Positions 521 to 51,487 of a stretch of DNA of 64,000 nucleotides are shown here, piece by piece (position 1 is the stretch's first letter; each line of letters begins with the position of its first letter). The DNA comes from an uncultured Gammaproteobacteria bacterium. Its GTDB lineage: Bacteria > Patescibacteriota > Microgenomatia > CAZXEC01. The stretch is taken from contig CAZXEC010000001.1 in the NCBI GenBank assembly GCA_964639595.1, positions 390,903 to 454,902 of the forward strand, read 5' to 3'. The translations under genes and the position numbers were made by a program. The notes below the pieces were generated by a model, which saw only the letters and a program-made list of their open reading frames with translations, made no database searches and was not told the DNA's origin.

Positions 521-1692
521 TGATTATTGGGATTGATGCCAATGAAGCCAATCAAAATCAAAAGGTAGGCATTGGCCAGTATGCTTACTGGATTATAAAA
601 AGCCTTTACCAGCTTGATACTAAAAATAGTTATTTGATTTACCTCAAAAATAAATTATTGTCAGGGATGCCCCAGGCCCGCCCCAATTGGCAATATCGAA
701 TCATCGGCCCATCTTGGTTGTGGACTCAATGGAGGCTGCCATGGTCGCTGATAGCAGATCGCCCCCAGCCTGATGTTTTTTTGTCCTTGACCCATTATGC
801 TCCCAGGTTTTGTCCGGTTCCCTTATTGGTATCAGTGATGGACTTATCCTACTTAGAATTTGGTGACTACTTTAAGAAATCTGATTTATATCAGCTCAAA
901 AACTGGACCAAATATTCAGTCGAGAGAGCAAACACTATTATCGCTATTTCCCAATCTACCAAAAATGACATCACCAAACATTACAAAATTGAGCCAGACA
1001 AAATTCATGTGGTTTATCCGGGATACGATCGGGAGAAATTTATGGTTGCCAAGAATGATGATAAATTACAGCAAATCAAGACTAAATATGGCATAGCCGG
1101 CCCATTTATTATATCAGTGGGAACTCTCCAACCCAGAAAAAATTACCTCAAATTGCTCGAGGCGTTGGCTAGGGTGAAGGGTGAAGGATTAAGGGTTAAG
1201 GGACAGGTAGGTCATTCCCTGTCCTCTTCCCCTTTTTCCCTTGACGCTTTACGCTTAGTGATTGCCGGCAAAAAAGGCTGGCTATATCATGATATTTTTA
1301 GCAAAGTCAAGGAACTTGGGCTGGAGAGGGACGTTGTATTTACTGATTTTATTGCTGATGATGATTTGGCTGTACTTTATAATTGCGCCCAAGCTTTTGT
1401 TTTAGTTTCTTTGTATGAAGGTTTTGGAATTCCAGTGGTAGAGGCGATGGCCTGCGGTTGTCCGGTAGTTGTTTCTAACATTTCCAGTTTGCCGGAAGTG
1501 TCAGGCGATGCCGGAATTTTGGTTGACCCCAACTCTGCTGATAATATTGCCCAGGGTATCATTGAGGCTTTAGATAAAAGAGAGGATTTATCAGCCAAAG
1601 CTTTAGTACAAGCTCAAAAATTTGATTGGCAAACTTCGGCCCGGCAAGTGCTACTGTTGCTGGAGGCAACCAGTAGGAACAAATCTCCTTAA
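517..1692 (+). CDS. Glycosyltransferase family 1 (GT4-type), carrying a ~25-aa in-frame insertion
   Basis: Motifs KNYLKLLEA...LVIAGKKGW and EGFGIPVVEAMACGCPVVVSN are present. The segment RVKGEGLRVKGQVGHSLSSSPFSLDALR (nt 1171-1258) is extra relative to the usual GT1 spacing. A GGAGG Shine-Dalgarno lies upstream. Confidence 0.8.
   Translation: MMIIGIDANEANQNQKVGIGQYAYWIIKSLYQLDTKNSYLIYLKNKLLSGMPQARPNWQYRIIGPSWLWTQWRLPWSLIADRPQPDVFLSLTHYAPRFCPVPLLVSVMDLSYLEFGDYFKKSDLYQLKNWTKYSVERANTIIAISQSTKNDITKHYKIEPDKIHVVYPGYDREKFMVAKNDDKLQQIKTKYGIAGPFIISVGTLQPRKNYLKLLEALARVKGEGLRVKGQVGHSLSSSPFSLDALRLVIAGKKGWLYHDIFSKVKELGLERDVVFTDFIADDDLAVLYNCAQAFVLVSLYEGFGIPVVEAMACGCPVVVSNISSLPEVSGDAGILVDPNSADNIAQGIIEALDKREDLSAKALVQAQKFDWQTSARQVLLLLEATSRNKSP
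1171..1258. repeat. GC-rich imperfect palindromic element (G-arm/C-arm followed by CTTGACGCTTTAC), copy 1, in frame within a GT1 gene
   Basis: GGGTGAAGGGTGAAGG...GGGACAGG/CCTGTCC...CCCCTTTTTCCCTTGACGCTTTAC. It shares order and core with the copy at 26371-26430. Confidence 0.45.
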
Positions 1693-14801: not shown

Positions 14802-14817
14802 AACTTATAGCCTCCCC

Positions 14818-18270: not shown

Positions 18271-18367
18271 CGCTTCAACCTGCTTGTTTAATAAATATAA
18301 TAATCTATAGCTTCTACATGCTCATCTTGGATGAGGCAAGACTCTCTCCCTATTGACAAGGTGAAAA

Positions 18368-18404
18368 AAGTGGTTCAAAATGGATATAAGTGGTGAAAAG
18401 TGGT
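18368..18404 (+). promoter_or_regulatory. Phased direct-repeat array (AAGTGGT x3 plus one degenerate copy at 10-bp spacing), candidate MraZ operator, with a TTGACA -35 at 18353-18358
   Basis: AAGTGGT occurs at 18368, 18388 and 18398, and AAATGGA at 18378. This matches the known architecture of MraZ-binding direct repeats upstream of mraZ. Confidence 0.45.
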
Positions 18405-18420
18405 GTCTGCCCAAAAACTT

Positions 18421-18816: not shown

Positions 18817-19694
18817 ATACTATCTTTCACCAGCCGGTGCTTTTGGCCGAGTCCGTTGACTACTTGAATGTGACAAAAGGTAGGCGATATATTGATGCCA
18901 CTTTAGGTGGTGGTGGGCATACTTGGGAGATTTTAAAAAGAGGTGGTTTGGTTTTGGGGCTGGATGTTGATGAGGCGGCAATCACCTACTGCCAGGAGAG
19001 GTTTGGGCAGGAGGAAAATTTAGTTGTAAAGCAGGGTAATTTTGCCAAGATCGCCGATATTGCTGGCTCTGCCGGTTTTGATCAAGTTGAGGGGATACTG
19101 TTTGATCTGGGTTTATCGTCGCATCAGCTTGGTGCGGCAGAAAGAGGATTTTCGTTTGCCAAAGACGGGCCTTTGGATATGCGGGCGGATTTGTCACTGG
19201 GAGTCAAAGCAGCTGATCTAGTGGGAGTGTTATCAAAAAAGGAGCTCTATGAACTTTTTCAAAATTATGGTCAAGATCCCAATTCTTGGAGAGTGGCTAA
19301 CTATATTGTTAGCCAGCGTCGAATAGAACAGATTATCTCAACCAGGCAACTGGCAGGGATAATTGAGACGGCAACTGGCAAGACCAGACGTAAAATTCAT
19401 CCGGCAACCAGAATTTTTCAAGCGCTCAGAATTGCTGTCAATGATGAGATTGGGAATCTGAAGTTAGGGCTAAGTGGCGCCATGGCAGTTTTAAAGAAAG
19501 ACGGCAAACTGGTGGTTGTTAGTTATCATTCGCTGGAAGATCGGGTGGTTAAGGATTTTTTCAAGAGTCAGAAAAATTTACGCATCGTCAATGAAAAACC
19601 AATTTTACCAACCCGTGAAGAAATTGAAATTAACCCCAGGTCAAGAAGCGCCAAGATGAGAGTAGCAGAGAAAATAATGATGAATGATGAATGA
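18813..19694 (+). CDS. rsmH: 16S rRNA (cytosine1402-N4)-methyltransferase RsmH (MraW)
   Basis: HQPVLLAESVDYL...IDATLGGGGHT...GILFDLGLSSHQL. The C-terminal MMNDE is contributed by a repeat element. Confidence 0.85.
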   Translation: MNTIFHQPVLLAESVDYLNVTKGRRYIDATLGGGGHTWEILKRGGLVLGLDVDEAAITYCQERFGQEENLVVKQGNFAKIADIAGSAGFDQVEGILFDLGLSSHQLGAAERGFSFAKDGPLDMRADLSLGVKAADLVGVLSKKELYELFQNYGQDPNSWRVANYIVSQRRIEQIISTRQLAGIIETATGKTRRKIHPATRIFQALRIAVNDEIGNLKLGLSGAMAVLKKDGKLVVVSYHSLEDRVVKDFFKSQKNLRIVNEKPILPTREEIEINPRSRSAKMRVAEKIMMNDE

Positions 19695-19735
19695 TGAATG
19701 ATGAAGGATAAAAGATAAAAAATAAAGGTTTACTG
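19674..19735. repeat. AT-rich 'ATGAATGATGAAGGAT' dispersed repeat family, copy at the rsmH/ftsL junction
   Basis: ATAATGATGAATGATGAATGATGAATGATGAAGGATAAAAGATAAAAAATAAAGG. Confidence 0.5.
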
Positions 19736-19738
19736 CCC

Positions 19739-20050
19739 ATGTATTTTGCCAAAACAGAAACAACCAAATCCGCACAGCACTACCTATTCATTTTACTAAT
19801 AGTATTAATGCTGATATTGTCATTTTTACAGCTTGTTTTGGCTAACCACCTGGCGACGCAAGGCAGAACCATGGCCAAAATTGAAGAGCAGGTTGGCATT
19901 TTAGAAGAAGAGAATCAAGAACTGCAAAATCAGAAAGCTAAAATTACTTCGATAGGTCACATAGCCCAAGAGAGTCAAAGATTAGGCTTTTACAAGCCTG
20001 GCTCTTTCCTGTATATTTCTTCTCAGACGGTTGTGGCTTTGGCTAATTGA
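19739..20050 (+). CDS. ftsL: Cell division protein FtsL-like (single TM plus coiled coil)
   Basis: Position between rsmH and ftsI; one TM (HYLFILLIVLMLILSFLQLVLA) followed by a leucine-zipper-like segment. Confidence 0.5.
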   Translation: MYFAKTETTKSAQHYLFILLIVLMLILSFLQLVLANHLATQGRTMAKIEEQVGILEEENQELQNQKAKITSIGHIAQESQRLGFYKPGSFLYISSQTVVALAN

Positions 20051-20076
20051 AAATTCTCGTACATTTCTTGTAACTT

Positions 20077-21804
20077 ATGTGGAGAATCAAGTTCCTCTTT
20101 TTTGCTATTGTAGTGGTAGGATTTTTGATCATTGCCAGATTATTTTTTTGGCAAGTATTATCACAGGATAAACTTCAAGCTAGAGCAGAACAGCAGCACT
20201 GGTTTATAAGGGAAATCGGTGCCAGCAGGGGAGAAATATTTGATAGAAATGGTGCCAAACTAGTGGGGAATGATTTGGCCTTTTTGGTGTATGCCAACTT
20301 GCCGGCGCTTGTCGAATCGCAAAAAGCAGAAATTGCCAGAGTCCTGGCGCCGGTTGTCTATCAAGGTAATGAAGCCACGGCCTCGGCAGTTGATTTGCCT
20401 GCTAGCAAGAATTTCCAAGAGGAGATTTTAGCAAAATTAAATCAATCCAATTTAATTTGGGTGCCTCTGGCGCGCAAAATTAGCCAGCAATCCAAAAAAA
20501 CTATTGAATCTTATAATTTTGACGGCATAAACTTTGAGCAAGACAACCAAAGATTTTATCCGGAAGCATCCATGGCAGCCCAACTCTTAGGGTTTGTCGG
20601 CTCTGACCAGGACGGTCGCGATAGAGGTTATTTCGGGCTAGAAGGATTTTACCACCAGGATCTTAAGGGTAAGCCGGGGGAAGTTCAACAAGAACGTGAT
20701 GCCCGTGGTCGGCCCATCCTGATTGGCGGGTATAAAATTGGCCAAGCAGAAGATGGCAGGAATTTACAACTCTACCTGGATCGTACTATTCAATATTTTG
20801 CAGAAAAACATTTGGCAGCAGGTGTTTTGAGATATGGGGCCAAATCAGGCTCGGTGGTGGTAGTGGATCCTCAAACCGGTGGGATATTGGCGATGGCTTC
20901 TTATCCGGCATATGATCCATTAAACTTTACCAAGTATCCGGCTGTCCTCTATAAAAACCCGCTGGTGGCTGATACTTATGAGCCAGGATCAACTTTTAAA
21001 GTGTTTATTATGTCGGCGGCGCTCCAGGAAAGTTTAGTAAAGCCGGACACCATTTGTCCTATCTGCCATGGACCTAAGAAAATTGGTGAGTATGCTGTCA
21101 GAACTTGGGACAATAAGTACAGAGCCAACTCTACCATGGCTGATGTTATCATACACTCGGATAACGTTGGCATGACCCATGTGGCTGACTTGTTGGGACT
21201 AGATAGGCTATATAAATATATTGAAAATTTTGGTTTCGGCCAACTGACAGGAATTGACTTGCAGGATGAAGCGGCAGCCCAGTTGCGCCCCAAAAGTGAT
21301 TGGTATCCGATTGATGTGGCAACTGCCTCATTCGGTCAAGGAGTAGCAGTGACTGCTATCCAAATGGTTAGTGCTGTATCAACACTGGCTAACGGTGGGA
21401 AATTAATGGAACCGCATGTGGTTGAAAAAATTATTGGGAGAGATAAAACAATCGAAATAAAACCTAAAATTATCAGGCAGATTTTAAGACCGGAAACAAC
21501 CAAGCAGGTGACTGAAATAATGGTGCAGGCAGTAGAAAAAGGAGAAGCCAAATGGACCAGGCTTTCTGGCTTTAGAATTGCCGGTAAAACCGGGACGGCC
21601 CAGATTCCCATTGCCGGGCATTATGATCCCAAAAAGACCATTGCTTCTTTTGTGGGATTTGCGCCAGCTGATCAGGCCCGCTTTGTGATGTTGGTCAGGT
21701 ATGATGAGCCAACCAGTTCTCCTTATGGAGCAGAAACCGCCGCTCCCACTTTTTTTGCCATTGCCCGCGATATTTTAGGCTATCTAAATATTGCCCCGCA
21801 GTAG
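20077..21804 (+). CDS. ftsI: Peptidoglycan D,D-transpeptidase FtsI (class B PBP)
   Basis: STFK (EPGSTFKVF), SDN (HSDNVG) and KTGT (AGKTGTAQ) motifs. N-terminal TM plus dimerisation domain. Confidence 0.85.
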   Translation: MWRIKFLFFAIVVVGFLIIARLFFWQVLSQDKLQARAEQQHWFIREIGASRGEIFDRNGAKLVGNDLAFLVYANLPALVESQKAEIARVLAPVVYQGNEATASAVDLPASKNFQEEILAKLNQSNLIWVPLARKISQQSKKTIESYNFDGINFEQDNQRFYPEASMAAQLLGFVGSDQDGRDRGYFGLEGFYHQDLKGKPGEVQQERDARGRPILIGGYKIGQAEDGRNLQLYLDRTIQYFAEKHLAAGVLRYGAKSGSVVVVDPQTGGILAMASYPAYDPLNFTKYPAVLYKNPLVADTYEPGSTFKVFIMSAALQESLVKPDTICPICHGPKKIGEYAVRTWDNKYRANSTMADVIIHSDNVGMTHVADLLGLDRLYKYIENFGFGQLTGIDLQDEAAAQLRPKSDWYPIDVATASFGQGVAVTAIQMVSAVSTLANGGKLMEPHVVEKIIGRDKTIEIKPKIIRQILRPETTKQVTEIMVQAVEKGEAKWTRLSGFRIAGKTGTAQIPIAGHYDPKKTIASFVGFAPADQARFVMLVRYDEPTSSPYGAETAAPTFFAIARDILGYLNIAPQ

Positions 21805-21808
21805 CTTG

Positions 21809-22510
21809 CTACCAAGCAGCGCTGGGATGCTCACGATCAATAATGAATTTCTTAAAATTACCCTGGCAGTATTTTTGGGCCAGTAGTTCAAATTCTGCCA
21901 TAGCCAGATCTAAATTTTGCCTATTTTCATCAGGAGATTCAAAAACCAAGATGGCATTTTTGGTCTGTTCTGTTAGTTTGGTCCTGTCGCCTTCTCGCCA
22001 ATTCCATCTTCTACAAACTGCACCACTGTTATCTTTATAAATAACTTCACCCACCACAGGCGGATCGTTGGCTGTTTGCCCTAAAGGGATAAACTCTTCA
22101 CGGCCGCTGGCAAAATTAAAGATTAGATCGCCGTCTATTTTATCAAGATCTTCTCCGCCGACTGCCAGCAGATATTTTAAGGAAATATAATTGTATAAGT
22201 CGACTAATTTGTTAATATGAGGCAGGGGGTTTTCTCTTGCAGCTCTTCTTACCAGTGCCTCGATTGAGCTTCTATAGTCATGAGGATCGCAACCAAATTT
22301 TCTATATATATTTCTCCAGGCAAGAATTGTGGGGTGTTCTGCCACAGATGCAAACTGGGAAAATGCTTGTCTGACCTCTCTTTCGGCTTGTCTTTGCAGG
22401 TTGCCAATTGTTACCTCATCGCCATTATTATCCAAATTAAATCCAACTATGGCGCCGATAGTAATATTGGCAAATGACTCAAAAATAGCGTCTGACACTA
22501 CTAATTTCAT
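21809..22510 (-). CDS. Stand-alone B3/4 (PheT tRNA-binding-like) domain protein
   Basis: PHINKLVDLYNYISLKYLLAVGGEDLDKIDGDLIFNFASG closely resembles the PheT B3/4 domain core. It is one of the few minus-strand genes. Confidence 0.5.
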   Translation of the reverse strand: MKLVVSDAIFESFANITIGAIVGFNLDNNGDEVTIGNLQRQAEREVRQAFSQFASVAEHPTILAWRNIYRKFGCDPHDYRSSIEALVRRAARENPLPHINKLVDLYNYISLKYLLAVGGEDLDKIDGDLIFNFASGREEFIPLGQTANDPPVVGEVIYKDNSGAVCRRWNWREGDRTKLTEQTKNAILVFESPDENRQNLDLAMAEFELLAQKYCQGNFKKFIIDREHPSAAW

Positions 22511-22576
22511 GACAAGAGTATATACAAAAAAAGTAGCAAATTACAACTGATTAAGATATAATTAGCTTCCAGATCA

Positions 22577-23797
22577 ATGCTACAGACTCTCAAAAACTGG
22601 TACCACTTGCTGCAAGCCTTAACAGCCTGTTTCTGGTTTGGTTTTCCTTCCGCCAGACTTCAGGTAATTGGCGTCACTGGCACTGATGGTAAGACCACCA
22701 CAGTCAATCTGATTTACCACATCCTCAGGCAAGCTGGTAAAAAAGTATCAATGGTGTCCTCAATCAATGCCGTGTTGGGCAACGAGGATTATGATACCGG
22801 CTTTCATGTGACCACCCCTGACCCTTATTTTTTGCAAAAATATCTTAAAATGGCGGCGGATGACGGTGCGGAATATATGATAGTGGAAGCCACTTCCCAT
22901 GGTTTGGACCAAAACCGCCTCTGGGGAGTAAAATTTAAGGCCGCGGTTGTTACCAATATTACTCATGAACACCTGGATTATCACAAGACTTACCAGAATT
23001 ACTTAAAGTCCAAGGCCAAACTTTTTACCAATGTTGATTTGAGTATTCTTAACTTGGATGATCAGTCTTATTGGGTACTAGCTAAATTAGCTGCCGGTAA
23101 AAAAATAACCTATTCCCTAAAAAATAATACTGCCGACTATACAGTTGATAAATTTCCCTTCCAGACCAAGCTGACCGGAGAGTACAATAAATATAATATT
23201 TTGGCAGCACTGGCCTGTTGTCGGGAGTTGGGAATTGATAAGCAGGCCATACGAGATGCCATTGCCGGCTTTTCGTCGTTGGCAGGCAGGATGGAAAAAA
23301 TTGACTTGGGGCAGGATTTTTCTGTGGTGGTTGATTTTGCCCATACACCAAATGCCCTAGGCCAGGCCTTAGGCGCACTGCGTTCAACTACCAAAGGTAG
23401 ATTGATGGCTGTTTTTGGCTGTGCTGGCTTGCGGGACAGGCAAAAAAGGCCGCTGATGGGACAGGTAGCAGGAAAACTGGCAGATCTGGCAGTAATTACC
23501 GCTGAAGATCCCAGGACTGAAGATGTCGGGCAAATTATTGATCAGATTGCCCAGGGCATGCAACAATCAGGGATGGAGGAATCAATGATGAATGATAAAG
23601 GATTAAGGATGAAAGGTTTTTATAAAGTGCCTGATAGAAAAGAAGCAATAGAGTTTGCCATCAATCTGGCGCAAACCGGTGATACAATAGGGATTTTTGG
23701 TAAAGGACACGAAAAATCTATGTGCTATGGTACGAAAGAATATTCCTGGTCAGATCAGGAGGCTGCTTACGCCGCCATCAGGAAAAGGTTATCATGA
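22577..23797 (+). CDS. murE: UDP-MurNAc-L-Ala-D-Glu:diamino acid ligase MurE, short form lacking the N-terminal domain; contains an in-frame repeat-derived insertion
   Basis: P-loop VIGVTGTDGKTTT at about residue 30, and DFAHTPNAL (MurE domain 3). The segment SGMEESMMNDKGLRMKG (23571-23613) coincides with a dispersed repeat. Confidence 0.7.
   Translation: MLQTLKNWYHLLQALTACFWFGFPSARLQVIGVTGTDGKTTTVNLIYHILRQAGKKVSMVSSINAVLGNEDYDTGFHVTTPDPYFLQKYLKMAADDGAEYMIVEATSHGLDQNRLWGVKFKAAVVTNITHEHLDYHKTYQNYLKSKAKLFTNVDLSILNLDDQSYWVLAKLAAGKKITYSLKNNTADYTVDKFPFQTKLTGEYNKYNILAALACCRELGIDKQAIRDAIAGFSSLAGRMEKIDLGQDFSVVVDFAHTPNALGQALGALRSTTKGRLMAVFGCAGLRDRQKRPLMGQVAGKLADLAVITAEDPRTEDVGQIIDQIAQGMQQSGMEESMMNDKGLRMKGFYKVPDRKEAIEFAINLAQTGDTIGIFGKGHEKSMCYGTKEYSWSDQEAAYAAIRKRLS
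23571..23613. repeat. Same repeat family, copy in frame inside murE
   Basis: …ATCAATGATGAATGATAAAGGATTAAGGATGAAAGG shares a 17-mer (AATGATAAAGGATTAAG) with the reverse complement of 30446-30462. Confidence 0.5.
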
Positions 23798-24540
23798 AAA
23801 TAGCTGGTATAATTTTAGCAGCCGGTAAAGGCACCCGTTTTAATAAAGGCGCGCCATCACGCCTGCCCAAAGTGTTATACAAAATTGGTGGTCGACCAAT
23901 GCTTGGTTATACTTTGGATATCCTCAAGCATTTAGGGGTTGAACCCCTCAATACAGTGATTGTGATTGGACATCAAGGCCACCTGGTCAGGCAATTTGCC
24001 GGCAGCCAATATAAATATGCTATTCAAAATCCACCCCTGGGAACAGGTGATGCCTTAAAGTGTGGACTTGGCCAAGTTCCAGCGGACTTTAATACCGTCC
24101 TTTGCTTAAATGGTGATGATAGTGCTTTTTATAAACCACAGACTATCAATAAGATTATAAAAATCCATTTCCAAGAAAAATCAACTATCACCTTTGTCAC
24201 ATTACAAAAAGAAAATCCTGTTGGCTTGGGAAGAATCATCAGGGATCAAGCCGATCACCTGCAGGGTATTATTGAAGAAAAAGATGCCACTGACAGAGAG
24301 AGACAAATCAAAGAAGTAAATGATGGATTATATATATTTGAAAAAAACTGGCTAACCGACAATATTGTTGACCTTCCACGCGGTCCACAAGGAGAATATT
24401 ATTTGGTAGACTTAGTAAAGATGGCGCTGGGCCAAAACAAGAAAGTGATTGCCTATAAACTGACGGATGCCAGCCAATGGTGGGGTGTTAATACCCCGGA
24501 AGAATTGATCCAGGCCAATCAACTGATGTCAAAGGAATAA
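23794..24540 (+). CDS. glmU: GlmU N-terminal domain homologue (GlcNAc-1-P uridylyltransferase) as a separate ORF
   Basis: MKIAGIILAAGKGTRF...LPKVLYKIGGRPMLGYTLD. ATGA overlap with murE. It ends at the position of the GlmU interdomain linker. Confidence 0.6.
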   Translation: MKIAGIILAAGKGTRFNKGAPSRLPKVLYKIGGRPMLGYTLDILKHLGVEPLNTVIVIGHQGHLVRQFAGSQYKYAIQNPPLGTGDALKCGLGQVPADFNTVLCLNGDDSAFYKPQTINKIIKIHFQEKSTITFVTLQKENPVGLGRIIRDQADHLQGIIEEKDATDRERQIKEVNDGLYIFEKNWLTDNIVDLPRGPQGEYYLVDLVKMALGQNKKVIAYKLTDASQWWGVNTPEELIQANQLMSKE

Positions 24541-24543
24541 TCA

Positions 24544-25215
24544 ATGAATTTAAAATTTCCGGACTGGGAGAGATCACAGAAGAAAATTGACCAACTTCAG
24601 TCTGCCGGGGTGCGCTTTTATCAACCTGGTAGTTGTGTGGTGGCAGAGAAGGTACAAATCAAATCAGGTACAGCAATTTTACCCAACTGCCGCATTTTAG
24701 GGAAAACCACGATTGGTAAAAATTGCCAGATAGGACCGGATTGCTTAATAGATAATTGCCAAATTGGTGATGATTGCCAGATTGTCGCGTCTTGCTTGGA
24801 AGAGGCGGTCATTGAAAGTAGTGTTGATATTGGCCCGTATTCTCATATTAGAGAGGGCACGGTTATTAAAAAAAGCGCTCATATTGGAAATTTTGTAGAA
24901 ACAAAAAATACCGAAATTGGCCAAAGTACCAGAGTTGGACATATGTCATATCTTGGTGATGCGACAGTTGGCCAAGATGTCAATGTGGGAGCAGGGGCTG
25001 TTGTTGCTAATTTTGACGGACAAAAAAAATATCAAACTAAAATTGGATCAGGAACTCAAGTTGGGTCAGATACCATCCTTGTTGCTCCTGTTTCTGTGGG
25101 ACGGAATGCCAAAACTGGTGCCGGAGCAGTGGTGATTGAAGATATTCCCGATGATGCCTTGGCAGTCGGAGTGCCGGCCAAAGTTATCAAAGTGAGAGGG
25201 GTAAGAATTAAATGA
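24544..25215 (+). CDS. glmU: GlmU C-terminal domain homologue (GlcN-1-P N-acetyltransferase, LbH) as a separate ORF
   Basis: HMSYLGDATVGQDVNVGAGAVVANFDGQKKYQTKIGSGTQVGSDTILVAPVSVG matches the GlmU acetyltransferase core. Confidence 0.6.
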   Translation: MNLKFPDWERSQKKIDQLQSAGVRFYQPGSCVVAEKVQIKSGTAILPNCRILGKTTIGKNCQIGPDCLIDNCQIGDDCQIVASCLEEAVIESSVDIGPYSHIREGTVIKKSAHIGNFVETKNTEIGQSTRVGHMSYLGDATVGQDVNVGAGAVVANFDGQKKYQTKIGSGTQVGSDTILVAPVSVGRNAKTGAGAVVIEDIPDDALAVGVPAKVIKVRGVRIK

Positions 25216-26393
25216 GATTGTATGAATTTGAAGCCCGCCAACTCTTAAAAGATCAAGGAGTGAACGTCCCTGATGGGAAACTTATCACCAGTGTCGAAGA
25301 CCTTAAAAAATTACCCGCAGATTATTTGGTTGTCAAAGCGCAAGTATTGACAGGCGGCAGGCAAAAAGGCAATCTGGTGAGAATCAGAGATAATGCCGGT
25401 CAAGTAGCTGCCGACGTTAAAGAATTATTATCTGAAAAAGATGATTATGTTTCCTCTATATTGGTTTGTCAAAAAATTACTTCACAAAAAGAATATTATG
25501 TTAGTTTTTCTTATGATACTTCCAGCCGAACTCCGGTGTTAGCTTTTTCTGATCAGGGAGGCGTTGATATTGAAGATGCCAAAAAGGTGAAAATTTATCC
25601 GATTGATCCATTGACTGATTTTGATCCGTCAGCTTTACCGATTCCGAAGGATTTAGTTGACACAGTGGCCAAACTATATCAGGTTTTTGTCAAATATGAT
25701 TGCGAGCTGGTGGAAGTAAATCCCCTGGTGGTTGATACTGCAGGACAAATTCTGGCGCTTGATGCCAAGATTATTTTGGATGATGATGCGGACTTTCGCA
25801 GAGAAGCAAACCCCGATTTAATCGGGGTAAAATTCCCGGAAAGAAATTTATTTGGCAGAGCTTCAACAGAAGCAGAAATTGAGGCCAGAACTATTGATGA
25901 GGGAGATCATCGAGGCACAGCCGGTTCTGTTTATTGGGATCTACCAGGTGACATTGCAGTGCTGGCTGCCGGCGGCGGCGGTTCTATTGTCTGCATGGAT
26001 GCTTTAATCGCCTTGGGAGGCAAACCTGCCAATTATACCGAGCATTCCGGCAATCCGCCTCGAGAAAAAATTAAACAGCTGACTAAAATAATTCTTGCCA
26101 AAAGTGGTTTGAAAGGTTGTTGGGTGGTAGGCGGCACCGCTAATTTTACAGATATTTATGAAACCTTGATGGGTTTTGTGGAAGGTTTAAGAGAAACCAG
26201 CCCCAAGCCTGGTTATCCGATTGTGATCCGTCGCGGCGGCCCCAGGGATCGTGAAGCTTTTGAGGCGCTAAAAGAAATTGGTAAAAAAGAAGGCTATGAT
26301 TTTCATATATATGGTCGGGAAACACCCATGACAGCGACAGCCAAAACAATAGTGGAACTGGCTTATGGCAAAGGGGAAAGGGGTAAAGGGTGA
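25212..26393 (+). CDS. SucC-like ATP-grasp subunit (succinyl-CoA synthetase beta, citryl-CoA synthetase large subunit, or ACL beta-like)
   Basis: MRLYEFEARQLLKDQGVNVPDGK... aligns with SucC throughout (…GGKPANYTEHSGNPP…). The C-terminal GKGERGKG tail is contributed by a GC-rich repeat element. Confidence 0.7.
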   Translation: MRLYEFEARQLLKDQGVNVPDGKLITSVEDLKKLPADYLVVKAQVLTGGRQKGNLVRIRDNAGQVAADVKELLSEKDDYVSSILVCQKITSQKEYYVSFSYDTSSRTPVLAFSDQGGVDIEDAKKVKIYPIDPLTDFDPSALPIPKDLVDTVAKLYQVFVKYDCELVEVNPLVVDTAGQILALDAKIILDDDADFRREANPDLIGVKFPERNLFGRASTEAEIEARTIDEGDHRGTAGSVYWDLPGDIAVLAAGGGGSIVCMDALIALGGKPANYTEHSGNPPREKIKQLTKIILAKSGLKGCWVVGGTANFTDIYETLMGFVEGLRETSPKPGYPIVIRRGGPRDREAFEALKEIGKKEGYDFHIYGRETPMTATAKTIVELAYGKGERGKG

Positions 26394-26430
26394 AGAAAAT
26401 CTTTCCCCTAAACGCTTGACGCTTTACCCT
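26371..26430. repeat. GC-rich palindromic element copy 2 at the sucC-like/sucD-like junction
   Basis: AAGGGGAAAGGGGTAAAGGGTGAAG...CTTTCCCC...CTTGACGCTTTACCC. The stems GGGGAAAG/CTTTCCCC and GGGTAAAG/CTTTACCC pair. Confidence 0.45.
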
Positions 26431-26435
26431 AACTA

Positions 26436-27347
26436 ATGATTTTAATAAACGAAAAAACTAAAGTTTTGGTACAGGGGATCACTGGTAAAGAAGGTTCCAA
26501 AGTGGCTTTGCAGATGCAAAACTATGGCACTAAAGTCTTGGCCGGAGTCACTCCGGGAAAAGGCGGAGAAGAAGTACATGGAGTACCAGTATATGACACA
26601 GTCGCCCAAGCTCTAAAAAACCACCCAGGTATTAATGCTTCGTTTGTGGCAGTACCTAATTTTGCCGCCTTATCAGCAGTTAAAGAAGCAGCAGTAGCCA
26701 AAATTGGGCTGATTAATGTTTTAACTGAACATGTACCGGTTCATGATACGGCTGTGATGATTGCCTTGGCCAAACAAAATAACGTCTGTTTGGTTGGCCC
26801 CAGTTCAATCGGGATTATCGCACCCGGAACTGGTAAAATTGGTTCAATCGGCGGAGATGACCCGCGGGGGGTATTTAGTCCAGGGGTGGTAGGTGTAATT
26901 TCCAAAAGCGGCGGCATGGCCTCGGAGATTTCCTGGATTTTAACAACAGCCGGTCTGGGGCAGTCAACAGTAGTGGGAATTGGCGGCGATATTTTAATAG
27001 GTAGCAATTTTGCCGATCTTTTATTACAATTCGATGGAGATGATCAAACCCGGGTGGTGGTGTTGTTTGGAGAAATTGGCGGTACTTACGAAGAGGAAGC
27101 AGCAGAATATATAAGTGGTAAGGGGAAAGCGGGAAGGGGAAAGTTTAGTAAACCAGTGGTGGCTTTTGTGTCCGGTTTATTTGCAGAAACCTTGCCTTCT
27201 GGTACCAAACTGGGGCATGCCGGAGCGATAGTTTACGGTAATAAAGGAAGTTATCCATCTAAGGTAGAGGCGCTCAAGAGAGCTGGAGTAGTGATGGCCA
27301 AGACCCTGGATGAAATCCCGACTTTGGTAAAAAAGGAGCTAAAATAA
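26436..27347 (+). CDS. SucD-like CoA-binding subunit with phospho-His loop
   Basis: KVLVQGITGKEGS (CoA-binding Rossmann) and TKLGHAGAIV (SucD catalytic His loop). Confidence 0.75.
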   Translation: MILINEKTKVLVQGITGKEGSKVALQMQNYGTKVLAGVTPGKGGEEVHGVPVYDTVAQALKNHPGINASFVAVPNFAALSAVKEAAVAKIGLINVLTEHVPVHDTAVMIALAKQNNVCLVGPSSIGIIAPGTGKIGSIGGDDPRGVFSPGVVGVISKSGGMASEISWILTTAGLGQSTVVGIGGDILIGSNFADLLLQFDGDDQTRVVVLFGEIGGTYEEEAAEYISGKGKAGRGKFSKPVVAFVSGLFAETLPSGTKLGHAGAIVYGNKGSYPSKVEALKRAGVVMAKTLDEIPTLVKKELK

Positions 27348-27352
27348 CAATT

Positions 27353-28117
27353 ATGGATAAGCAAAGCTTTTCTTCGAATAAAAGGTGGAAGACAGCCATT
27401 TCCGCAATAATTGACGGCCAACCTCACATTAGGGGCTATAAACTGGCAGATCTGGTGGATAAACTTACCCTTACCGAGGTGATCTTTTTGGAACTTAAAG
27501 GAGAATTACCGACAGGTAGCCAGCGCCAGATGATGGATGCTATTTTAATCTCCACTGTTGATAATGGTTTGGGCCCGCCGTCTGTTACTAACGCCCGAAA
27601 CTCGGCATCAAGTGTCAATCCGATGCAAGCATCAGTGGCTGCCGGAATTTTAGGTATCGGGGAGGCACATGGCGGGGCTATTGAGGAAGCAGCCCACCTA
27701 TTGCAGATGGGATACGCGGCTCCAGTTCTGGTAGAAAAAATTTTAGGCAAAGGCGATAGGATTCCCGGCTATGGCCACAAAGTCTATGATATTGACCCCA
27801 GAGCAACCCAGCTTTTGGACAAAGCCCAACAACTGGGATTTTATGGCGAGTACTGCACTTTGGCCAAAGAGGTAGGCAACGAACTGGAAAAGCAAAAAGG
27901 CAAGAAAATTCCCCTCAACGTTGATGGGGCTATTGCCGCCATTGTGTCTGATATGGGTTTTGACTGGCGTCTGGGCAAGGGCTTTTTCATAATCGGCAGA
28001 ACAGTCGCTTTGGTGGCTCACAGTTTTGAGGAGACAACCAGAGAAAAACCTTTCCGAAGAATTAGCGATGAAGATATTGAATACGACGGTCCTAACCCAA
28101 GAAAACTACCGCGTTAA
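27353..28117 (+). CDS. Citrate-synthase C-terminal-domain-like protein (citryl-CoA lyase-like, ~254 aa)
   Basis: All three citrate-synthase catalytic positions are conserved: HGGAIEE, GYGHKVYDIDPRA and NVDGA, plus GRTVALVAHSFEE. The size matches stand-alone Ccl. Confidence 0.55.
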   Translation: MDKQSFSSNKRWKTAISAIIDGQPHIRGYKLADLVDKLTLTEVIFLELKGELPTGSQRQMMDAILISTVDNGLGPPSVTNARNSASSVNPMQASVAAGILGIGEAHGGAIEEAAHLLQMGYAAPVLVEKILGKGDRIPGYGHKVYDIDPRATQLLDKAQQLGFYGEYCTLAKEVGNELEKQKGKKIPLNVDGAIAAIVSDMGFDWRLGKGFFIIGRTVALVAHSFEETTREKPFRRISDEDIEYDGPNPRKLPR

Positions 28118-28119
28118 TA

Positions 28120-29367
28120 TTGAAATTTAATATGTCTAATTCCCCAGAAGTTTTACATTTTATTGGTATTGGTGGTAGTGGTGCCTCGGCAGTGGCTGCT
28201 CTTGCTCAAGCCGCTGGATATCAAGTTACCGGATGCGATTTGGATACCAGCTCCAACTACTTAAAAGATTTGTCAACCATAGCAATCAGCCAAGGACATG
28301 CTCCCGCGCATATAAATAAGGTAGATCTGGTGGTAGTTTCGCCGGCGATTTTAAGCCTTGATGCTGATAACGAGGAACTCAAAGCAGCACACAATAAAAA
28401 AATTCCGCTGATGACCTGGCAGGAATTTATGGGTAAATTTTTGCAAAAAGACAAATTTGTGATTGCTGTTGCCGGCACTCACGGCAAATCAACCACTTGC
28501 GCCATGATCGGAATGATTTTGGAAGCGGCCGGCCTTGACCCAACAGTGGAAGTTGGAGCAATTGTCAGACAGTGGGGTAAAAATTATCGTCTTGGCCAGG
28601 GCAAATATTTTGTCTGTGAGGCCGATGAGTTTAATGATAATTTCTTAAACTACTATCCTGACCTGGCTGTTATTACCAACATTGAGTTTGACCATCCGGA
28701 ATATTTTCAAAATGAGCAGCAACTCCAGACTAGTTTTGCCAAGTTTATCAGCCAAGTCAAGTCTGGCGGTAGAGTGCTTCGTACCAGTGAAGTTGCTAAA
28801 GTTAAATATAATTTATCTATACCGGGTGAGTTTAATCAGGATAATGCCAGCCTGGCTGCAGCTTGCGCTCAACAACTTGGCATTGATGAGCTAGTTATAA
28901 AGAGCGCTTTGGAAAATTTTTCCGGAGTTGGCAGGAGATTTGAACAGGTGGGAGAAGTTGACGGTGTCAAAGTTTTTGACGATTATGCCCACCATCCCAC
29001 CGCCATTGTCAAAACACTGCAGGCTTTCAGGCAAAAATTCTCTAATGAGAAAATCTTTTGTGTTTTTCAGCCGCATATGTTTTCCCGCACCCGAGCTTTA
29101 TTTGATGATTTTGTTAAGGCTTTCCAAAATGCGCCGGTGGATGAAGTGATAGTTGTTGATATTTTTGCATCCCGCGAAAAAGCTACCGGCAGGGTGACCA
29201 GCCGTCAATTAGTCGAGGCTATAGGCAAAGATCATGTCAAATACTTATCCAGCTTAGAGGCTGCCTATAATTGGCTAAAAAGCCGGCTAGTTCCTGGTAG
29301 TATTGTGGTATGCATGGGCGCGGGTGATATTAATAAATTATCAAGAAAACTAGTTAATAATGAGTGA
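28120..29367 (+). CDS. murC: UDP-N-acetylmuramate--L-alanine ligase MurC
   Basis: HFIGIGGSGASAVA (domain 1) and VIAVAGTHGKSTT (P-loop). Confidence 0.85.
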   Translation: MKFNMSNSPEVLHFIGIGGSGASAVAALAQAAGYQVTGCDLDTSSNYLKDLSTIAISQGHAPAHINKVDLVVVSPAILSLDADNEELKAAHNKKIPLMTWQEFMGKFLQKDKFVIAVAGTHGKSTTCAMIGMILEAAGLDPTVEVGAIVRQWGKNYRLGQGKYFVCEADEFNDNFLNYYPDLAVITNIEFDHPEYFQNEQQLQTSFAKFISQVKSGGRVLRTSEVAKVKYNLSIPGEFNQDNASLAAACAQQLGIDELVIKSALENFSGVGRRFEQVGEVDGVKVFDDYAHHPTAIVKTLQAFRQKFSNEKIFCVFQPHMFSRTRALFDDFVKAFQNAPVDEVIVVDIFASREKATGRVTSRQLVEAIGKDHVKYLSSLEAAYNWLKSRLVPGSIVVCMGAGDINKLSRKLVNNE

Positions 29368-30436
29368 TCAATACAAAATAATTATAGACGAGTTGGGCAA
29401 AGATCACCTTTTGCAAGATGAGCCAATGGCCAGGCATACCACCTTTGCCATTGGCGGGCCGGCGGATTTGTTTTATGTAGCGCAAACCGCAGATGAGCTT
29501 ATTGGCGCTGTCAATTTAGCCAAAGCACGAAAAATTCCTTATTTTATTTTAGGTGGCGGATCAAAGATTTTGGTGGGGGATAAAGGTATCAGAGGACTGG
29601 TAATTCATAATAAAACTGTTGTAGTGGAAGTCATTAATTCATCCTTCATCATTCATCCCTCATCATTAACTAAGACGCAGCCGCGTTTTGGTCAGGCCGA
29701 TGAGGATCAGTTCATCAAATTTAATGATCTGGACTATGATGAATCAAAATATGACCGGGTGTTGGTCAAAGTTGATTCCGGAGTTATGGTGCCGGTGCTG
29801 ATTACTAATTTAATTAGCCAGGATATAACTGGCTTGGAGTGGTTTGCCAGAATCCCGGCATCAGTTGGTGGTGCAATCTATATGAATATGCATGGTGCTA
29901 ATCGTTTTTTGGGAAACTTAGTGGTGTCTGCCAGAATTCTTGATGCAGCCGGTAATATCAAAACTGTTGACCAATCTTATTTTCAATTTGATTATGATTA
30001 TAGTATTTTGCACAAGACCCTTGAGGTAGTACTTGATGTGACCCTAGCCTTGTATAAAGGAGACAGGCAGAAAGCATTAACTATTGCCACTGAGTGGGCC
30101 AAGAGAAAAAGTAAGGTTCAAACACCAACTTCTGCCGGTAGTATTTTCCGCAATCTTTCTGTGGTTGATATGACGAGACTTAAACTGCCCACTCCTGCTG
30201 CTGGCTATGTGATTGATCACCTGCTTGGTCTGGCAGGCACCAAAATCGGACAAGCCCAAATTTCTACTAAACATGCCAACTTTATAGTTAATTTAGGTGG
30301 AGCAAAAGCTACCGATGTGCTAGAATTGGTGAAGCTTTGCCAAGAGCAAGCCCAGCAAAAATTGGGTTTGGAACTGGCAGAAGAACTGCTCTACGTAGGG
30401 GAGTTTGGTAAGCAGATGGATGGTGAGATGAATTAA
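29360..30436 (+). CDS. murB: UDP-N-acetylenolpyruvoylglucosamine reductase MurB with an in-frame repeat-derived insertion
   Basis: An FAD-binding N-terminus (TTFAIGGPADLFY) and GSIFRN. The segment INSSFIIHPSSLTKTQ (29631-29675) coincides with the dispersed repeat in reverse orientation. Confidence 0.8.
   Translation: MSDQYKIIIDELGKDHLLQDEPMARHTTFAIGGPADLFYVAQTADELIGAVNLAKARKIPYFILGGGSKILVGDKGIRGLVIHNKTVVVEVINSSFIIHPSSLTKTQPRFGQADEDQFIKFNDLDYDESKYDRVLVKVDSGVMVPVLITNLISQDITGLEWFARIPASVGGAIYMNMHGANRFLGNLVVSARILDAAGNIKTVDQSYFQFDYDYSILHKTLEVVLDVTLALYKGDRQKALTIATEWAKRKSKVQTPTSAGSIFRNLSVVDMTRLKLPTPAAGYVIDHLLGLAGTKIGQAQISTKHANFIVNLGGAKATDVLELVKLCQEQAQQKLGLELAEELLYVGEFGKQMDGEMN
29631..29675. repeat. 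Same repeat family, reverse orientation, in frame inside murB
   Basis: Reverse complement = CTTAGTTAATGATGAGGGATGAATGATGAAGGATGAATTAATGAC. Confidence 0.5.
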
Positions 30437-30482
30437 CAAGATTCATTAATCTTTAATACTTAATCCTTTATCATTAACTAAT
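30416..30482. repeat. Same repeat family at the murB/murA junction, ending at the murA ATG
   Basis: Reverse complement contains ATTAGTTAATGATAAAGGATTAAG. Forward sequence reads …CCTTTATCATTAACTAAT-ATG. Confidence 0.5.
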
Positions 30483-31769
30483 ATGGCTAAATTTGAAATC
30501 ACTGGCGGCAGGCCCTTAATCGGACAGATTAATGCTGGAGCCAACAAGAATGGAATCTTACCGGTAATGGCTGCCAGCTTGTTAACGGATGAGGATTGTA
30601 TTTTAGAAAATGTACCTGATATAGGCGATGTTAAAGTATTGGGCCAAATCCTGCGGGAATTAGGTGCGGTAGTGGAAAAGCAGGGCGAGGATACACTCAA
30701 AATCAATACTTCAAAAGTTACTAAACATCAATTATCATCAGAACTGGTAGCTCAATTGAGAGGTTCTGTTTTACTTTTGGGGCCACTGGTCAAAAGACTG
30801 GGTAAGGTAAAAATGCGCCACCCCGGTGGAGACATTATCGGACGCAGGTCGATTGATGTCCATTTAGATGCTCTGTCTCAACTAGGAGTCAGCGTTAAGG
30901 TTGATGATAATAGTTACGAATTATCTGCTGGCAAATTAACCGGAGTTCCGGTGTTTTTAGTTGAGTCATCGGTCACAGCTACAGAAAATGTTATCATGGC
31001 AGCAGTTCTGGCAGAAGGAACTACGGTTATCAAACATGCTGCTTCCGAGCCGCATGTGGCTGATTTGTGTAAATTCTTAAATAAAATGGGTGCCAAAATA
31101 TCAGGAGTTGGTTCAAACCTGCTGATGGTGGAAGGCGTCTCAAGATTAAGAGGAATAACACACAGAATTCCCTCTGATCATATTGAAGTAGGCACTTTTG
31201 CCGTGGCTGCTGCTGTTACCCAGGGAGATATTACCATCAATGATGTGCAACCGGAAGATATGGACATGATTGTGACTTATCTGAAAAAAATGGGAGTTGA
31301 TATCAAGTTGGTTGCCAATAATTCGTCAGAACATAACCAGTCTCCATGGAGTCTGCAGGTGAAATCATCAAAACTGACGGCAATTCGTAAAATCGATACT
31401 GACCCATGGCCAGGATTCCCGACTGATTTGACGTCTGTATTTACTGTTTTGGCAACCCAAGCTGCAGGAACTACGTTGGTTCATGACTGGATGTACGAAG
31501 GCAGAATGTTTTTTGTGGATAAACTGATTAACATGGGCGCCAACATCATCTTATGTGATCCCCATCGGGCAGTGGTGGCTGGGCCGACTAAGCTGGTCGG
31601 CAGAGAACTGGATAGTCCGGATTTGAGAGCCGGTATGGCCCTGGTTTTGGCAGCCTTGGCAGCTGATGGTAGAAGCACCATAGATCGGATAGAACAGGTG
31701 GAAAGAGGTTACGGGGATGTGGAAAAAAGATTCAAAAGCCTGGGCGCGGCTATTAAGAGGGTAGACTGA
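30483..31769 (+). CDS. murA: UDP-N-acetylglucosamine 1-carboxyvinyltransferase MurA
   Basis: MAKFEITGGRPLIGQINAGANKNGILPVMAA... with typical MurA N-terminus and length. Confidence 0.85.
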   Translation: MAKFEITGGRPLIGQINAGANKNGILPVMAASLLTDEDCILENVPDIGDVKVLGQILRELGAVVEKQGEDTLKINTSKVTKHQLSSELVAQLRGSVLLLGPLVKRLGKVKMRHPGGDIIGRRSIDVHLDALSQLGVSVKVDDNSYELSAGKLTGVPVFLVESSVTATENVIMAAVLAEGTTVIKHAASEPHVADLCKFLNKMGAKISGVGSNLLMVEGVSRLRGITHRIPSDHIEVGTFAVAAAVTQGDITINDVQPEDMDMIVTYLKKMGVDIKLVANNSSEHNQSPWSLQVKSSKLTAIRKIDTDPWPGFPTDLTSVFTVLATQAAGTTLVHDWMYEGRMFFVDKLINMGANIILCDPHRAVVAGPTKLVGRELDSPDLRAGMALVLAALAADGRSTIDRIEQVERGYGDVEKRFKSLGAAIKRVD

Positions 31770-31845
31770 TAATGATTAAGGATGAATGATGAATTACAAA
31801 ATAAATTTAATCATTAATAGTTGATCTTTTATCATTAACTAATGT
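31770..31845. repeat. Same repeat family at the murA/glmS junction (forward and reverse half-copies forming a hairpin)
   Basis: TAATGATTAAGGATGAATGATGAAT…TTAATCATTAATAG…CTTTTATCATTAACTAATG. TAATGATTAA (31770-79) pairs with TTAATCATTA (31808-17). Confidence 0.5.
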
Positions 31846-38989: not shown

Positions 38990-39376
38990 ATGATCAGGCG
39001 CGTGTTCCATCGGGTGCGCCGGCATACCATTTCTTTCCAAAATGCCTTCTCAGGCTTGTGGTATGCCTATTCCACCCAGCCTAATTTTGCTGTTCATACT
39101 ATCGTGGCGATACTGGCGATTTTTTTGGGCTGGCGGTTGGCAATTGGTGAAACCGAGTGGTTGATTTTGACTTTTACCATAGTTTTAGTATTTGTGGCAG
39201 AAATGATCAATACTGCCCTGGAGTCAATCTGTGATCTGGTAACCCAGGAATGGCGGCAAAGCGCCAAAATTGCCAAAGATATATCAGCAGCCATGGTGCT
39301 GGTTGTTGCCATTGGCGCAGTCGTTGTGGGACTGGTTATTTTCGGAAAATATATAATGCTAATTCTTAATTCATAA
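38990..39376 (+). CDS. dgkA: Diacylglycerol/undecaprenol kinase DgkA
   Basis: Aligns with E. coli DgkA (EMINTALESICDLV, AKDISAAMVLVVAIGAVVVG). Three TM helices. Confidence 0.75.
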   Translation: MIRRVFHRVRRHTISFQNAFSGLWYAYSTQPNFAVHTIVAILAIFLGWRLAIGETEWLILTFTIVLVFVAEMINTALESICDLVTQEWRQSAKIAKDISAAMVLVVAIGAVVVGLVIFGKYIMLILNS

Positions 39377-39398
39377 TTCTGGATTCTTAATTATAAAT

Positions 39399-51447: not shown

Positions 51448-51487
51448 AACTTGTCCCCAAGCTGGATTTTTAGGTACAATATCATTG

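Follow-up and report, generated by a model that had tools for sequence, protein, structure and literature searches.

The window analysed here (64 kb of contig CAZXEC010000001.1) belongs to a genome of Candidatus Daviesbacteria, within the Microgenomates of the candidate phyla radiation (CPR): its MurB, MurE and MurA are 100% identical to NCBI proteins so named. The window includes a 32-kb cell-wall and division supercluster (gene identities by Pfam) with the order mraZ, rsmH, ftsL, ftsI, a B3_4-domain gene on the minus strand, murE, a split glmU, three ATP-citrate-lyase (ACL)-like genes, murC, murB, murA, glmS, further genes, dgkA, mraY, murD, further genes, ftsW, murG, ftsQ, ftsA and ftsZ. 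This supercluster hosts most members of a family of short repeat arrays with a 7-nt unit that are found at gene junctions and, in frame, inside open reading frames (ORFs), including those for the peptidoglycan enzymes MurE and MurB.

The repeat unit is GRTNAAK on one strand (hereinafter R; for example, GATGAAT, GATGAAG, GATTAAG, GGTGAAG and GGTAAAG) and TTNATCM on the other (F), and a single F-strand consensus, TTnATCCTTAATCCTTnATCCTTnATCATTAA(C)TAAT with (TTNATCM)n, fits all copies. The window contains eight loci in both orientations, five at gene junctions and three within ORFs, with arrays of 3–7 units (Table 1). At five loci, the F arms are closed by a non-periodic terminus, which reads ATCATTAACTAAT upstream of murA and glmS, ATCATTAACTAAG in murB (with no start codon behind it), CCCTAACTAAT 5' of the ACL alpha-like gene and CGCTTAGTGAT in the glycosyltransferase (GT) gene. 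Identity between copies ranges from 63 to 90% over 28–56 nt. The murB-murA and murA-glmS elements lie 1.36 kb from each other and share 79% identity over 56 nt, with the loop and the terminus included; the F arms of the GT and ACL elements are 74% identical over 38 nt; and the murE array is 89% complementary to the murB-murA element over 28 nt. Three F copies fall within 2.2 kb. A first-pass annotation of this DNA had described a dispersed family whose copies occur in either orientation, between genes as well as in frame within coding sequences, with five copies between 19674 and 31845 (at the rsmH end, in murE, in murB, at murB-murA and at murA-glmS). All five are indeed present (19676-19727, 23571-23613, 29634-29674, 30415-30482 and 31767-31845), as is the 17-mer AATGATAAAGGATTAAG that it had found to be common to the murE copy and the copy upstream of murA. 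The 7-nt periodicity and three loci beyond those five (1166-1262, 26367-26437 and 39356-39398) are added here.

The repeat family is real, lineage-specific and far above chance expectation. The core proposed in the first-pass annotation, ATGAATGATGAAGGAT, has 17 matches in the window with up to 3 mismatches, compared with 1.3 expected, and none of 100 shuffled sequences has as many; a strict 24-nt degenerate pattern of three units has 4 matches compared with 0.00 expected; and a scan of the position weight matrix (PWM) type yields 32 positions compared with 3.3 in Markov shuffles (shuffle maximum 9). Tandem Repeats Finder (TRF) calls of period 7 begin at 1171, 19676, 23571, 26370, 29638, 31767 and 39360. 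An autocorrelation scan detects 7–10 regions of period 7 as opposed to 0–1 for each of the other periods from 4 to 13, which makes period 7 the sole enriched period in the window. At the same threshold, the background is 1.2 period-7 regions per 64 kb in related CPR and Chloroflexota loci (1.2 Mb, found via MurA, the nearest being ~56% identical) and 0.8 per 64 kb in unrelated metagenome loci (0.84 Mb). The units are A/T-rich, the G+C content of the window is ~41%, and a pattern scan of metagenomes indicates that short pieces of the motif arise by chance in AT-rich DNA, all of which would fit chance low complexity or an assembly artefact. The probability of such an origin is nevertheless negligible, and the controls refute it: the shuffles exclude it, the enrichment is confined to period 7, G+C-rich variants belong to the same family, and a second species conserves two of the arrays. 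Furthermore, the 23.4–34.4 kb stretch has the same sequence in four independent assemblies, so the heptamer arrays are not an assembly artefact. The possibility of ordinary AT-rich low complexity, which the first-pass annotation had itself raised, thus fails against both the shuffles and the period scan.

Table 1. Heptanucleotide repeat loci in the 64-kb window and their component arrays (R and F, the two strands of the unit)
Feature	Position	Strand	Type	Gene context	Composition
GT element	1166..1262	+	R-loop-F	G+C-richer full element in GT4 glycosyltransferase ORF 517-1692	TRF period 7, 4.6 copies; PWM score 18/18; translated in frame as VKGEGLRVKGQVGHSLSSSPFSLDA
GT element, R array	1172-1207				GGTGAAG GGTGAAG GATTAAG GGTTAAG, then loop
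GT element, F arm	1217-1262				end CTTAGTGAT
rsmH-ftsL array	19672..19727	+	R only	covers final six rsmH codons, TGA stop 19692-19694 and most of the rsmH-ftsL spacer	(AATGATG)x4, then AAGGATA AAAGATA AAAAATA; TRF period 7, 4.9 copies, 96% matches
murE array	23580..23613	+	R only	within murE	AATGATG AATGATA AAGGATT AAGGATG AA
ACL junction element	26367..26437	+	R-loop-F	G+C-richer full element between two ACL-like genes	
ACL element, R array				contains TGA stop 26391-26393	GGCAAAG GGGAAAG GGGTAAAG GGTGAAG, then short loop
ACL element, F arm				overlaps ATG at 26436	end CCCTAACTAAT
murB array	29634..29674	-	F only	inside murB	TTAATTCATCCTTCATCATTCATCCCTCATCATTAACTAAG; exact 16-mer match on the minus strand
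murB-murA element	30415..30482	+	R-loop-F	R-like stretch in last murB codons; stop 30434-30436	weak R-like stretch GATGGATGGTGAGATGAATTAA
murB-murA element, F array	30440-30482			abuts murA ATG at 30483	end TTTATCATTAACTAAT
murA-glmS element	31767..31845	+	R-loop-F	begins with murA stop	
murA-glmS element, R array	31770-31796				TAATGATTAAGGATGAATGATGAATTA, then A-rich loop
murA-glmS element, F array	31801-31843			2 nt 5' of glmS ATG 31846	end TTTATCATTAACTAAT
dgkA-mraY array	39356..39398	-	F only	spans dgkA stop (39374-39376) and the entire spacer to mraY ATG 39399	divergent F-type: TAATTCT TAATTCA TAATTCT GGATTCT TAATTAT; TRF period 7, 4.7 copies; seen in the period scan; aligns with other F arms

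Unit numbers at orthologous sites could be compared in a single relative, L005, whose MurE is 79% identical. At the rsmH-ftsL junction, the orthologous L005 array has 5 units where that of the window has 7, and its ACL junction element is retained with 6 additional nt and several substitutions; in this one relative, the older arrays have changed by whole or partial units. The murE copy is missing in L005. The murB-murA spacer, which is 46 nt long in the window, is 7 nt long in a relative with 74% MurA identity, is replaced by a TGATG overlap in another and is 2 nt long, with a GGAG Shine-Dalgarno (SD) motif, in yet another; these three relatives, more distant than L005, thus have no array at this junction. 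Downstream of murA, the spacer measures 76 nt in the window and 48 nt in the relative with 74% MurA identity, and in one relative read as DNA it has no array. Compared with these relatives, the murB-murA, murA-glmS and murE arrays are gains in this lineage. Outside the lineage of the window, the same unit family was found only in Collierbacteria (L144:12677-12713), where (AAGGAYG)5 covers a gene's stop codon together with the murI ATG. A Chloroflexota metagenome-assembled genome (L179:15077-19930) contains six period-7 arrays in 21 kb, including one R-loop-F pair as well as F arrays just 5' of an SD motif and ATG; the analogous R-loop-F arrays of this genome and of one metagenome contig are made of GTGATGA/GAGTAAT units. 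In a metagenome scan with GATGAAT-N(20-50)-ATCATTAACTAAT, the matches listed are almost all due to chance in AT-rich DNA; among them is an analogous (GTGATGA)-loop-(CACTCAT)n arrangement that ends in CATTAACTAAT (L296, minus strand, ~4120-4210 of the reverse complement). The degenerate three-unit pattern, when compared with viral contigs, retrieved unrelated sequences among the matches listed.

All copies within ORFs are located in variable loops or linkers. The murE array is read in frame as SMMNDKGLRM; the MurE of the closest relative (P0122, 79% identical) has 15 residues fewer at this site and its DNA contains no heptamers. The excess over the consensus loop of the family is the same peptide (~10 aa, 30 nt), coincident with the array, and other MurE homologues have unrelated insertions in this loop. 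MurE thus has a true, lineage-specific insertion, a net ~10 aa relative to the family loop, in line with the addition to MurE proposed in the first-pass annotation. In the AlphaFold model, the array segment is a coil that connects helix 317-330 to strand 347-350, its pLDDT being 75–78 compared with ~93 in the flanks. This MurE (gene from 22577) is a short form of 406 aa that, like all its close homologues, does not contain the Mur ligase N-terminal domain. The murB array is read in frame as INSSFIIHPSSLTK and coincides with a variable linker that is found in all 19 aligned homologues; in the closest of these (57% identical), the linker has the same length and its DNA is free of heptamers. Thus, MurB contains no net insertion, with the array sitting in a linker of unchanged length, and the earlier proposal that this copy adds INSSFIIHPSSLTKTQ to MurB has to be abandoned. 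In neither alignment is the peptide a conserved native sequence of the orthologues. The MurB segment is also modelled as a coil (pLDDT 68–71), so that both the MurE and the MurB segments are placed in lower-confidence coils. In the GT4 protein, 25 repeat-coded residues stand in place of the inter-domain linker, which has 2–22 aa in the homologues and is the longest here.

The sites that the arrays occupy are in line with simple coding arithmetic. Since 7 is coprime to 3, (GATGAAT)n has both TGA and ATG in all frames within 21 nt, so an ORF that enters an R array must stop. The rsmH product does end in ...IMMNDE* within the array, and that of murB ends in ...GEMN*, as recorded in the first-pass annotation; its view that the repeats supply these last codons describes a mechanical consequence, given that arrays with a TGA in every frame only appear to supply stops. 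The complementary (ATTCATC)n contains no stop codon, no ATG, GTG or TTG and no G, and the F arrays in the window are stop-free, start-free and nearly G-free, hence translatable in any frame, as is the case in murB. The units GATAAAG and GATTAAG of the murE array are variants with no in-frame TGA. The survival sites of arrays would accordingly be set by this arithmetic together with protein structure: R arrays would be confined to ORF ends and intergenic sites unless the stop is lost through variant units, as has happened in murE, and F arrays would either be read through a tolerant loop, as in murB and the second half of the GT element, or form an unstructured A/U/C-rich leader that abuts a start codon.

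The F arrays end 0–4 nt from the starts of murA (1 nt), glmS (2–3 nt) and mraY (0–4 nt), and the array of the ACL alpha-like gene overlaps the start; none of these has an SD-like motif. The claim that copies abut the murA and glmS starts is borne out by the 15-mer TTATCATTAACTAAT, which occurs in the window exactly twice, immediately 5' of both. Of the 58 genes, 14 (~24%) have an SD-like motif of 4 nt no more than 20 nt from the start, so the SD-less murA, glmS, mraY and ACL alpha-like gene follow the rule here, and an SD-less F-array leader would be compatible with initiation in such a genome. Several genes (e.g. those with starts at 1750, 22577, 38990 and 43405) have a TATAAT-like hexamer 5–15 nt 5' of the ATG, pointing to mRNAs with a very short leader or none.

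Among the RNA folds, a specific hairpin is predicted only for the GT copy, with the ACL element being marginal. The GT copy folds at -53.1 kcal/mol (z = -5.1; 0/200 shuffles as good) and its arms are each other's best partners (-46.3). For the ACL element, the values are -21.4 kcal/mol and z = -1.6, and for its L005 version, -28.7 kcal/mol and z = -3.5. The hairpin that the first-pass annotation proposed for 31770-31845 turned out to be weak: the murA-glmS element folds at -15.4 kcal/mol (z = -1.7), and 12/200 shuffles are equally good. The murB-murA element forms no significant hairpin (z = +0.5; own-arm duplex -9.9), and in both of these AT-rich junction elements, the arms pair better with arrays of other loci than with their own partner. 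Hairpin formation or translational masking was accordingly rejected as a common feature for the AT-rich copies and kept for the GT copy alone. Long-range R/F pairing in a polycistronic mRNA was considered as well, the arrays at 19.7 kb and 29.6 kb being 90% complementary, and was judged a by-product of shared units. A search of 19500-32000 with Rfam covariance models produced no match at E <= 1, and that of the whole window a single tRNA; with no Rfam match in the 76-nt murA-glmS spacer, a glmS ribozyme or other known RNA was discarded there. CsrA-type GGA sites or SD mimicry were considered as well: AAGGA is present in some units only and not in the commonest one, GATGAAT. The G+C-rich R arrays (1172-1204, 26370-26390 and L005:6826-6850) contain 3–4 GGG(G) tracts with 3–11 nt loops on the sense strand, and by analogy with the Xanthomonas and Nostoc heptamers (PMC4692102), these are candidate G-quadruplexes that could form such structures.

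Tandem degenerate 7-nt units are known from heptanucleotide simple-sequence repeats (SSRs), namely, the short tandemly repeated repetitive (STRR) sequences of the cyanobacteria Calothrix and Nostoc and the heptamers of Xanthomonas and Nostoc (Rehm et al. 2015, PMC4692102). The Xanthomonas GGGAATC and Nostoc GGGGAYT heptamers are intergenic, including sites within operons (pecE-pecF in Nostoc), are sometimes inverted, and recur in sister species at the same intergenic positions, variable in length and sequence (PMC4692102). The arrays in the window share with these SSRs the junction sites inside operons, the inverted pairs and the length variation between sister species, and the G-rich variants (1172-1204 and 26370-26390) have a G-tract spacing similar to that of the G-quadruplex-forming heptamers. 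At least three head-to-tail 7-nt units and variation of the unit number between orthologous sites (in a single relative), two of the features by which STRR are recognized, are both found in the window. The differences consist in the unit, GRTNAAK, the CPR/Microgenomates phylum, the very short arrays (3–7 units), the conserved non-periodic terminus ATCATTAACTAAT and the presence of copies inside essential peptidoglycan enzymes.

The TAACTGA repeats of marine Beggiatoaceae, cyanobacteria and Bacteroidetes end 1 nt 5' of SD-less starts and overlap upstream stops, with reverse copies within ORFs, including that of MurG (MacGregor 2015, PMC4679880). The arrays in the window similarly end a few nt from SD-less starts and overlap the stop of the upstream ORF; in both cases, one orientation is stop-rich in three frames, and the other is found in ORFs where the protein tolerates it (MurG in those genomes, MurE and MurB in the window). 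The terminal unit TAACTAA, 1 nt 5' of the murA ATG, matches TAACTGA in 6 of 7 positions. Membership in the TAACTGA family was nonetheless rejected on account of the defining unit: TAACTGATAACTGA with up to 3 mismatches has 4 matches in the window compared with 6.7 expected, none of them at the loci, there is no tandem TAACTGA, and only single TAACTAA termini are present. In addition, the strand that faces the murA, glmS and mraY starts here is the stop-free one rather than the stop-rich one, and the units are far more degenerate.

Rickettsia palindromic elements are unit elements of 100–150 bp, without a 7-nt periodicity and restricted to Rickettsia, that are translated in frame within genes where the protein has a surface or linker position. 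The GT copy (97 nt, -53 kcal/mol) resembles them as a palindrome that is translated in frame into 25 aa at a linker position, but among the eight loci it alone is specifically palindromic, murE and murB having single arrays, and we know of no sequence relation between the arrays and these families. MIRU, REP/BIME, Correia and RUP elements are units of 35–155 bp with defined ends; REP are tied to RAYT transposases (REP-associated tyrosine transposases), and Correia and RUP have terminal inverted repeats (TIRs) and target-site duplications (TSDs). They resemble the window arrays in their intercistronic positions within operons and, in the case of MIRU, in repeat ends that overlap the neighbouring stop and start codons. 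Defined ends, a RAYT link, TIRs and TSDs were not found at the window loci. A Y1 transposase gene (Y1_Tnp, L206:14259-14927, 222 aa) is contained in the region 14100-15125 of GCA_016198195.1 (JACQJB010000011.1); its flanks carry CCTGGGAGGTT / AACCTCCCAGG as inverted repeats, a hairpin on the upstream side and a hexamer array of CTAAAT.

The arrays are most plausibly (with a probability of about 0.65) degenerate heptanucleotide SSRs, specific to the Daviesbacteria lineage, that evolve by slippage and local copying. Arrays would lengthen and shorten through replication slippage, which is suggested by the different unit numbers at the orthologous L005 junctions and which is, as cited in PMC4692102, a published hypothesis for why period-7 SSRs are in excess in bacterial genomes. 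New sites would be seeded by short-range copying of an array along with its non-periodic 3' end, ATCATTAACTAAT, with ectopic conversion or template switching as candidate routes; local copying, which we infer from the extended homology and the clustering of copies, would explain the 56-nt homology of the junction elements and the three F copies in 2.2 kb. Several points weigh against this reading: the data cover ~73 kb of this genome and, among close relatives, 7 kb from a single one; copying is deduced from similarity alone, with neither a TSD nor a donor-recipient polarity seen; the MurB array involves no change of length, for which simple insertion or slippage gives no direct explanation; the 32-kb mraZ-ftsZ supercluster, half of the window, contains seven of the eight loci, which could reflect an operon-tied function rather than neutral accumulation; and two arrays are conserved across ~20% protein divergence, which could indicate selection. 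The arrays may have a specific regulatory function.

Alternatively, the arrays might be non-autonomous mobile mini-elements, of the type of MITEs (miniature transposable elements with inverted repeats), REPINs or Rickettsia palindromic elements, in which a trans-acting enzyme copies the R array, loop, F array and ATCATTAACTAAT as one block, even in frame into essential genes. Such mobility would be compatible with the homology that crosses the loop and the terminus, with the presence or absence of elements at murE, murB-murA and murA-glmS compared with relatives, with the strong, specific in-frame hairpin of the GT copy, reminiscent of Rickettsia, and with the Y1 (IS200-like) transposase gene 2.5 kb past the window end. 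It is nonetheless unlikely, given that copies vary from 34 to 97 nt in length, many have a single arm and the identity between them is low, that no TSD is seen at the junctions compared with relatives, that the AT-rich elements are not specific hairpins and pair across loci better than between their own arms, and that the change of unit number at orthologous sites is typical of slippage rather than transposition. On the same grounds, membership in MITEs (variable length, several single-arm copies, no TSD) was rejected; membership in the REP/REPIN-RAYT system and a link of the heptamers to the nearby Y1 transposase were both rejected as well because the flanks of this gene, two inverted repeats not found in the window and a hexamer array, are unrelated to the heptamers. 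The comparison with Correia, RUP or BIME elements drawn in the first-pass annotation is likewise not supported: the copies have no fixed length, distinct TIRs, recognizable TSD or near-identical sequences, and the transposase ends are unrelated.

It is similarly improbable that the arrays are selected cis-acting translation signals, with the F arrays as SD-independent leaders or enhancers at the murA, glmS, mraY and ACL alpha-like starts and the R arrays, at the end of the upstream ORF, coupling termination to reinitiation; R/F pairing might in addition keep the start masked for as long as the upstream ORF has not been translated. All four intergenic F arrays do end 0–4 nt from a start with no SD motif; TAACTAA ends 1 nt 5' of the murA ATG, comparable with the TAACTGA arrays in 'Maribeggiatoa' (PMC4679880); one relative keeps the arrays at rsmH and ACL; (AAGGAYG)5 of Collierbacteria L144 lies over a stop codon and the murI ATG; and start-proximal heptamer repeats affect expression according to a Nostoc preprint (10.1101/2022.06.06.494920). 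On the other hand, most genes here are SD-less anyway, which leaves nothing special to explain; the arrays fill entire spacers, so that contact with both genes is in part a trivial outcome; the same terminus is found in murB with no start following; relatives express the same genes with junctions of 0–7 nt; the hairpins of the AT-rich elements are not significant; and three copies lie within ORFs. The proposal of an operon-specific signal in the first-pass annotation meets with the same difficulty, with one copy in an unrelated glycosyltransferase gene and the conserved terminus also in murB. It is equally doubtful that the arrays and their ATCATTAACTAAT terminus are a CPR-specific cassette, not described before, that is actively copied over short distances in the supercluster. 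Such a cassette would co-regulate the peptidoglycan precursor genes (ftsL, murA, glmS and mraY), either by signalling initiation or coupling independently of an SD motif or by offering a binding platform to a protein that reads heptamers in RNA or DNA; the murE, murB and GT copies would be by-products of its spread.

Heptanucleotide repeats are already known and are over-represented in many bacteria, with their origin and role unexplained; the new aspects are the phylum, a small-genome CPR bacterium, and the in-frame tolerance in essential enzymes. The same unit family occurs here in every context, namely, at an ORF end, in inter-cistronic spacers, in SD-less leaders and translated in both orientations, and the window illustrates how the arithmetic of 7 versus 3 decides the survival sites of each orientation. 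Repeats of this kind can generate lineage-specific peptide insertions, as in MurE and the glycosyltransferase, and short C-terminal extensions and loop insertions in such proteins may have to be annotated as repeat-derived. If the arrays do affect translation in this largely SD-less organism, they would offer a way to study how CPR bacteria initiate without SD motifs.

Several other features of the window deserve mention. The B3_4-domain gene (21809-22510, minus strand) lies between ftsI and murE; in L005, ftsI adjoins murE with a spacer of 40 nt, so this gene would be either a lineage-specific insertion or a loss in L005. GlmU is split into a uridyltransferase gene (23794-24540) and a hexapeptide acetyltransferase gene (24544-25215). 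Between the split glmU and murC, inside the division and cell-wall cluster, 25212-28117 encodes the three ATP-citrate-lyase/citryl-CoA-like proteins, with the domains ATP-grasp_2 and Citrate_bind, CoA_binding and Ligase_CoA, and the C-terminal part of Citrate_synt, respectively; L005:5675-6948 contains the first of these genes and the start of the second, where the contig stops. The ACL-like genes may be a source of acetyl-CoA for the GlmU acetyltransferase. Within the murD ORF, 41606-41637 is an unrelated period-7 stretch (AGCAGTC AGCAGTC AGCTACC AGCTATC). Just upstream of the mraZ start and overlapping it, TRF detects a period-10 array of four AAAAGTGGTG copies (18366-18405), similar to the spaced direct-repeat operators bound by MraZ; the heptamers were rejected as an MraZ operator, the likely MraZ boxes being this separate array. 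Finally, the 47-nt divergent region between the genes 50712-51386 (minus strand) and 51434-54409 contains a perfect palindrome with 11-nt arms, CTATCACACCC-TTA-GGGTGTGATAG, and additional GGGTGTGATAG-like copies (51396-51440), which looks like a candidate operator.

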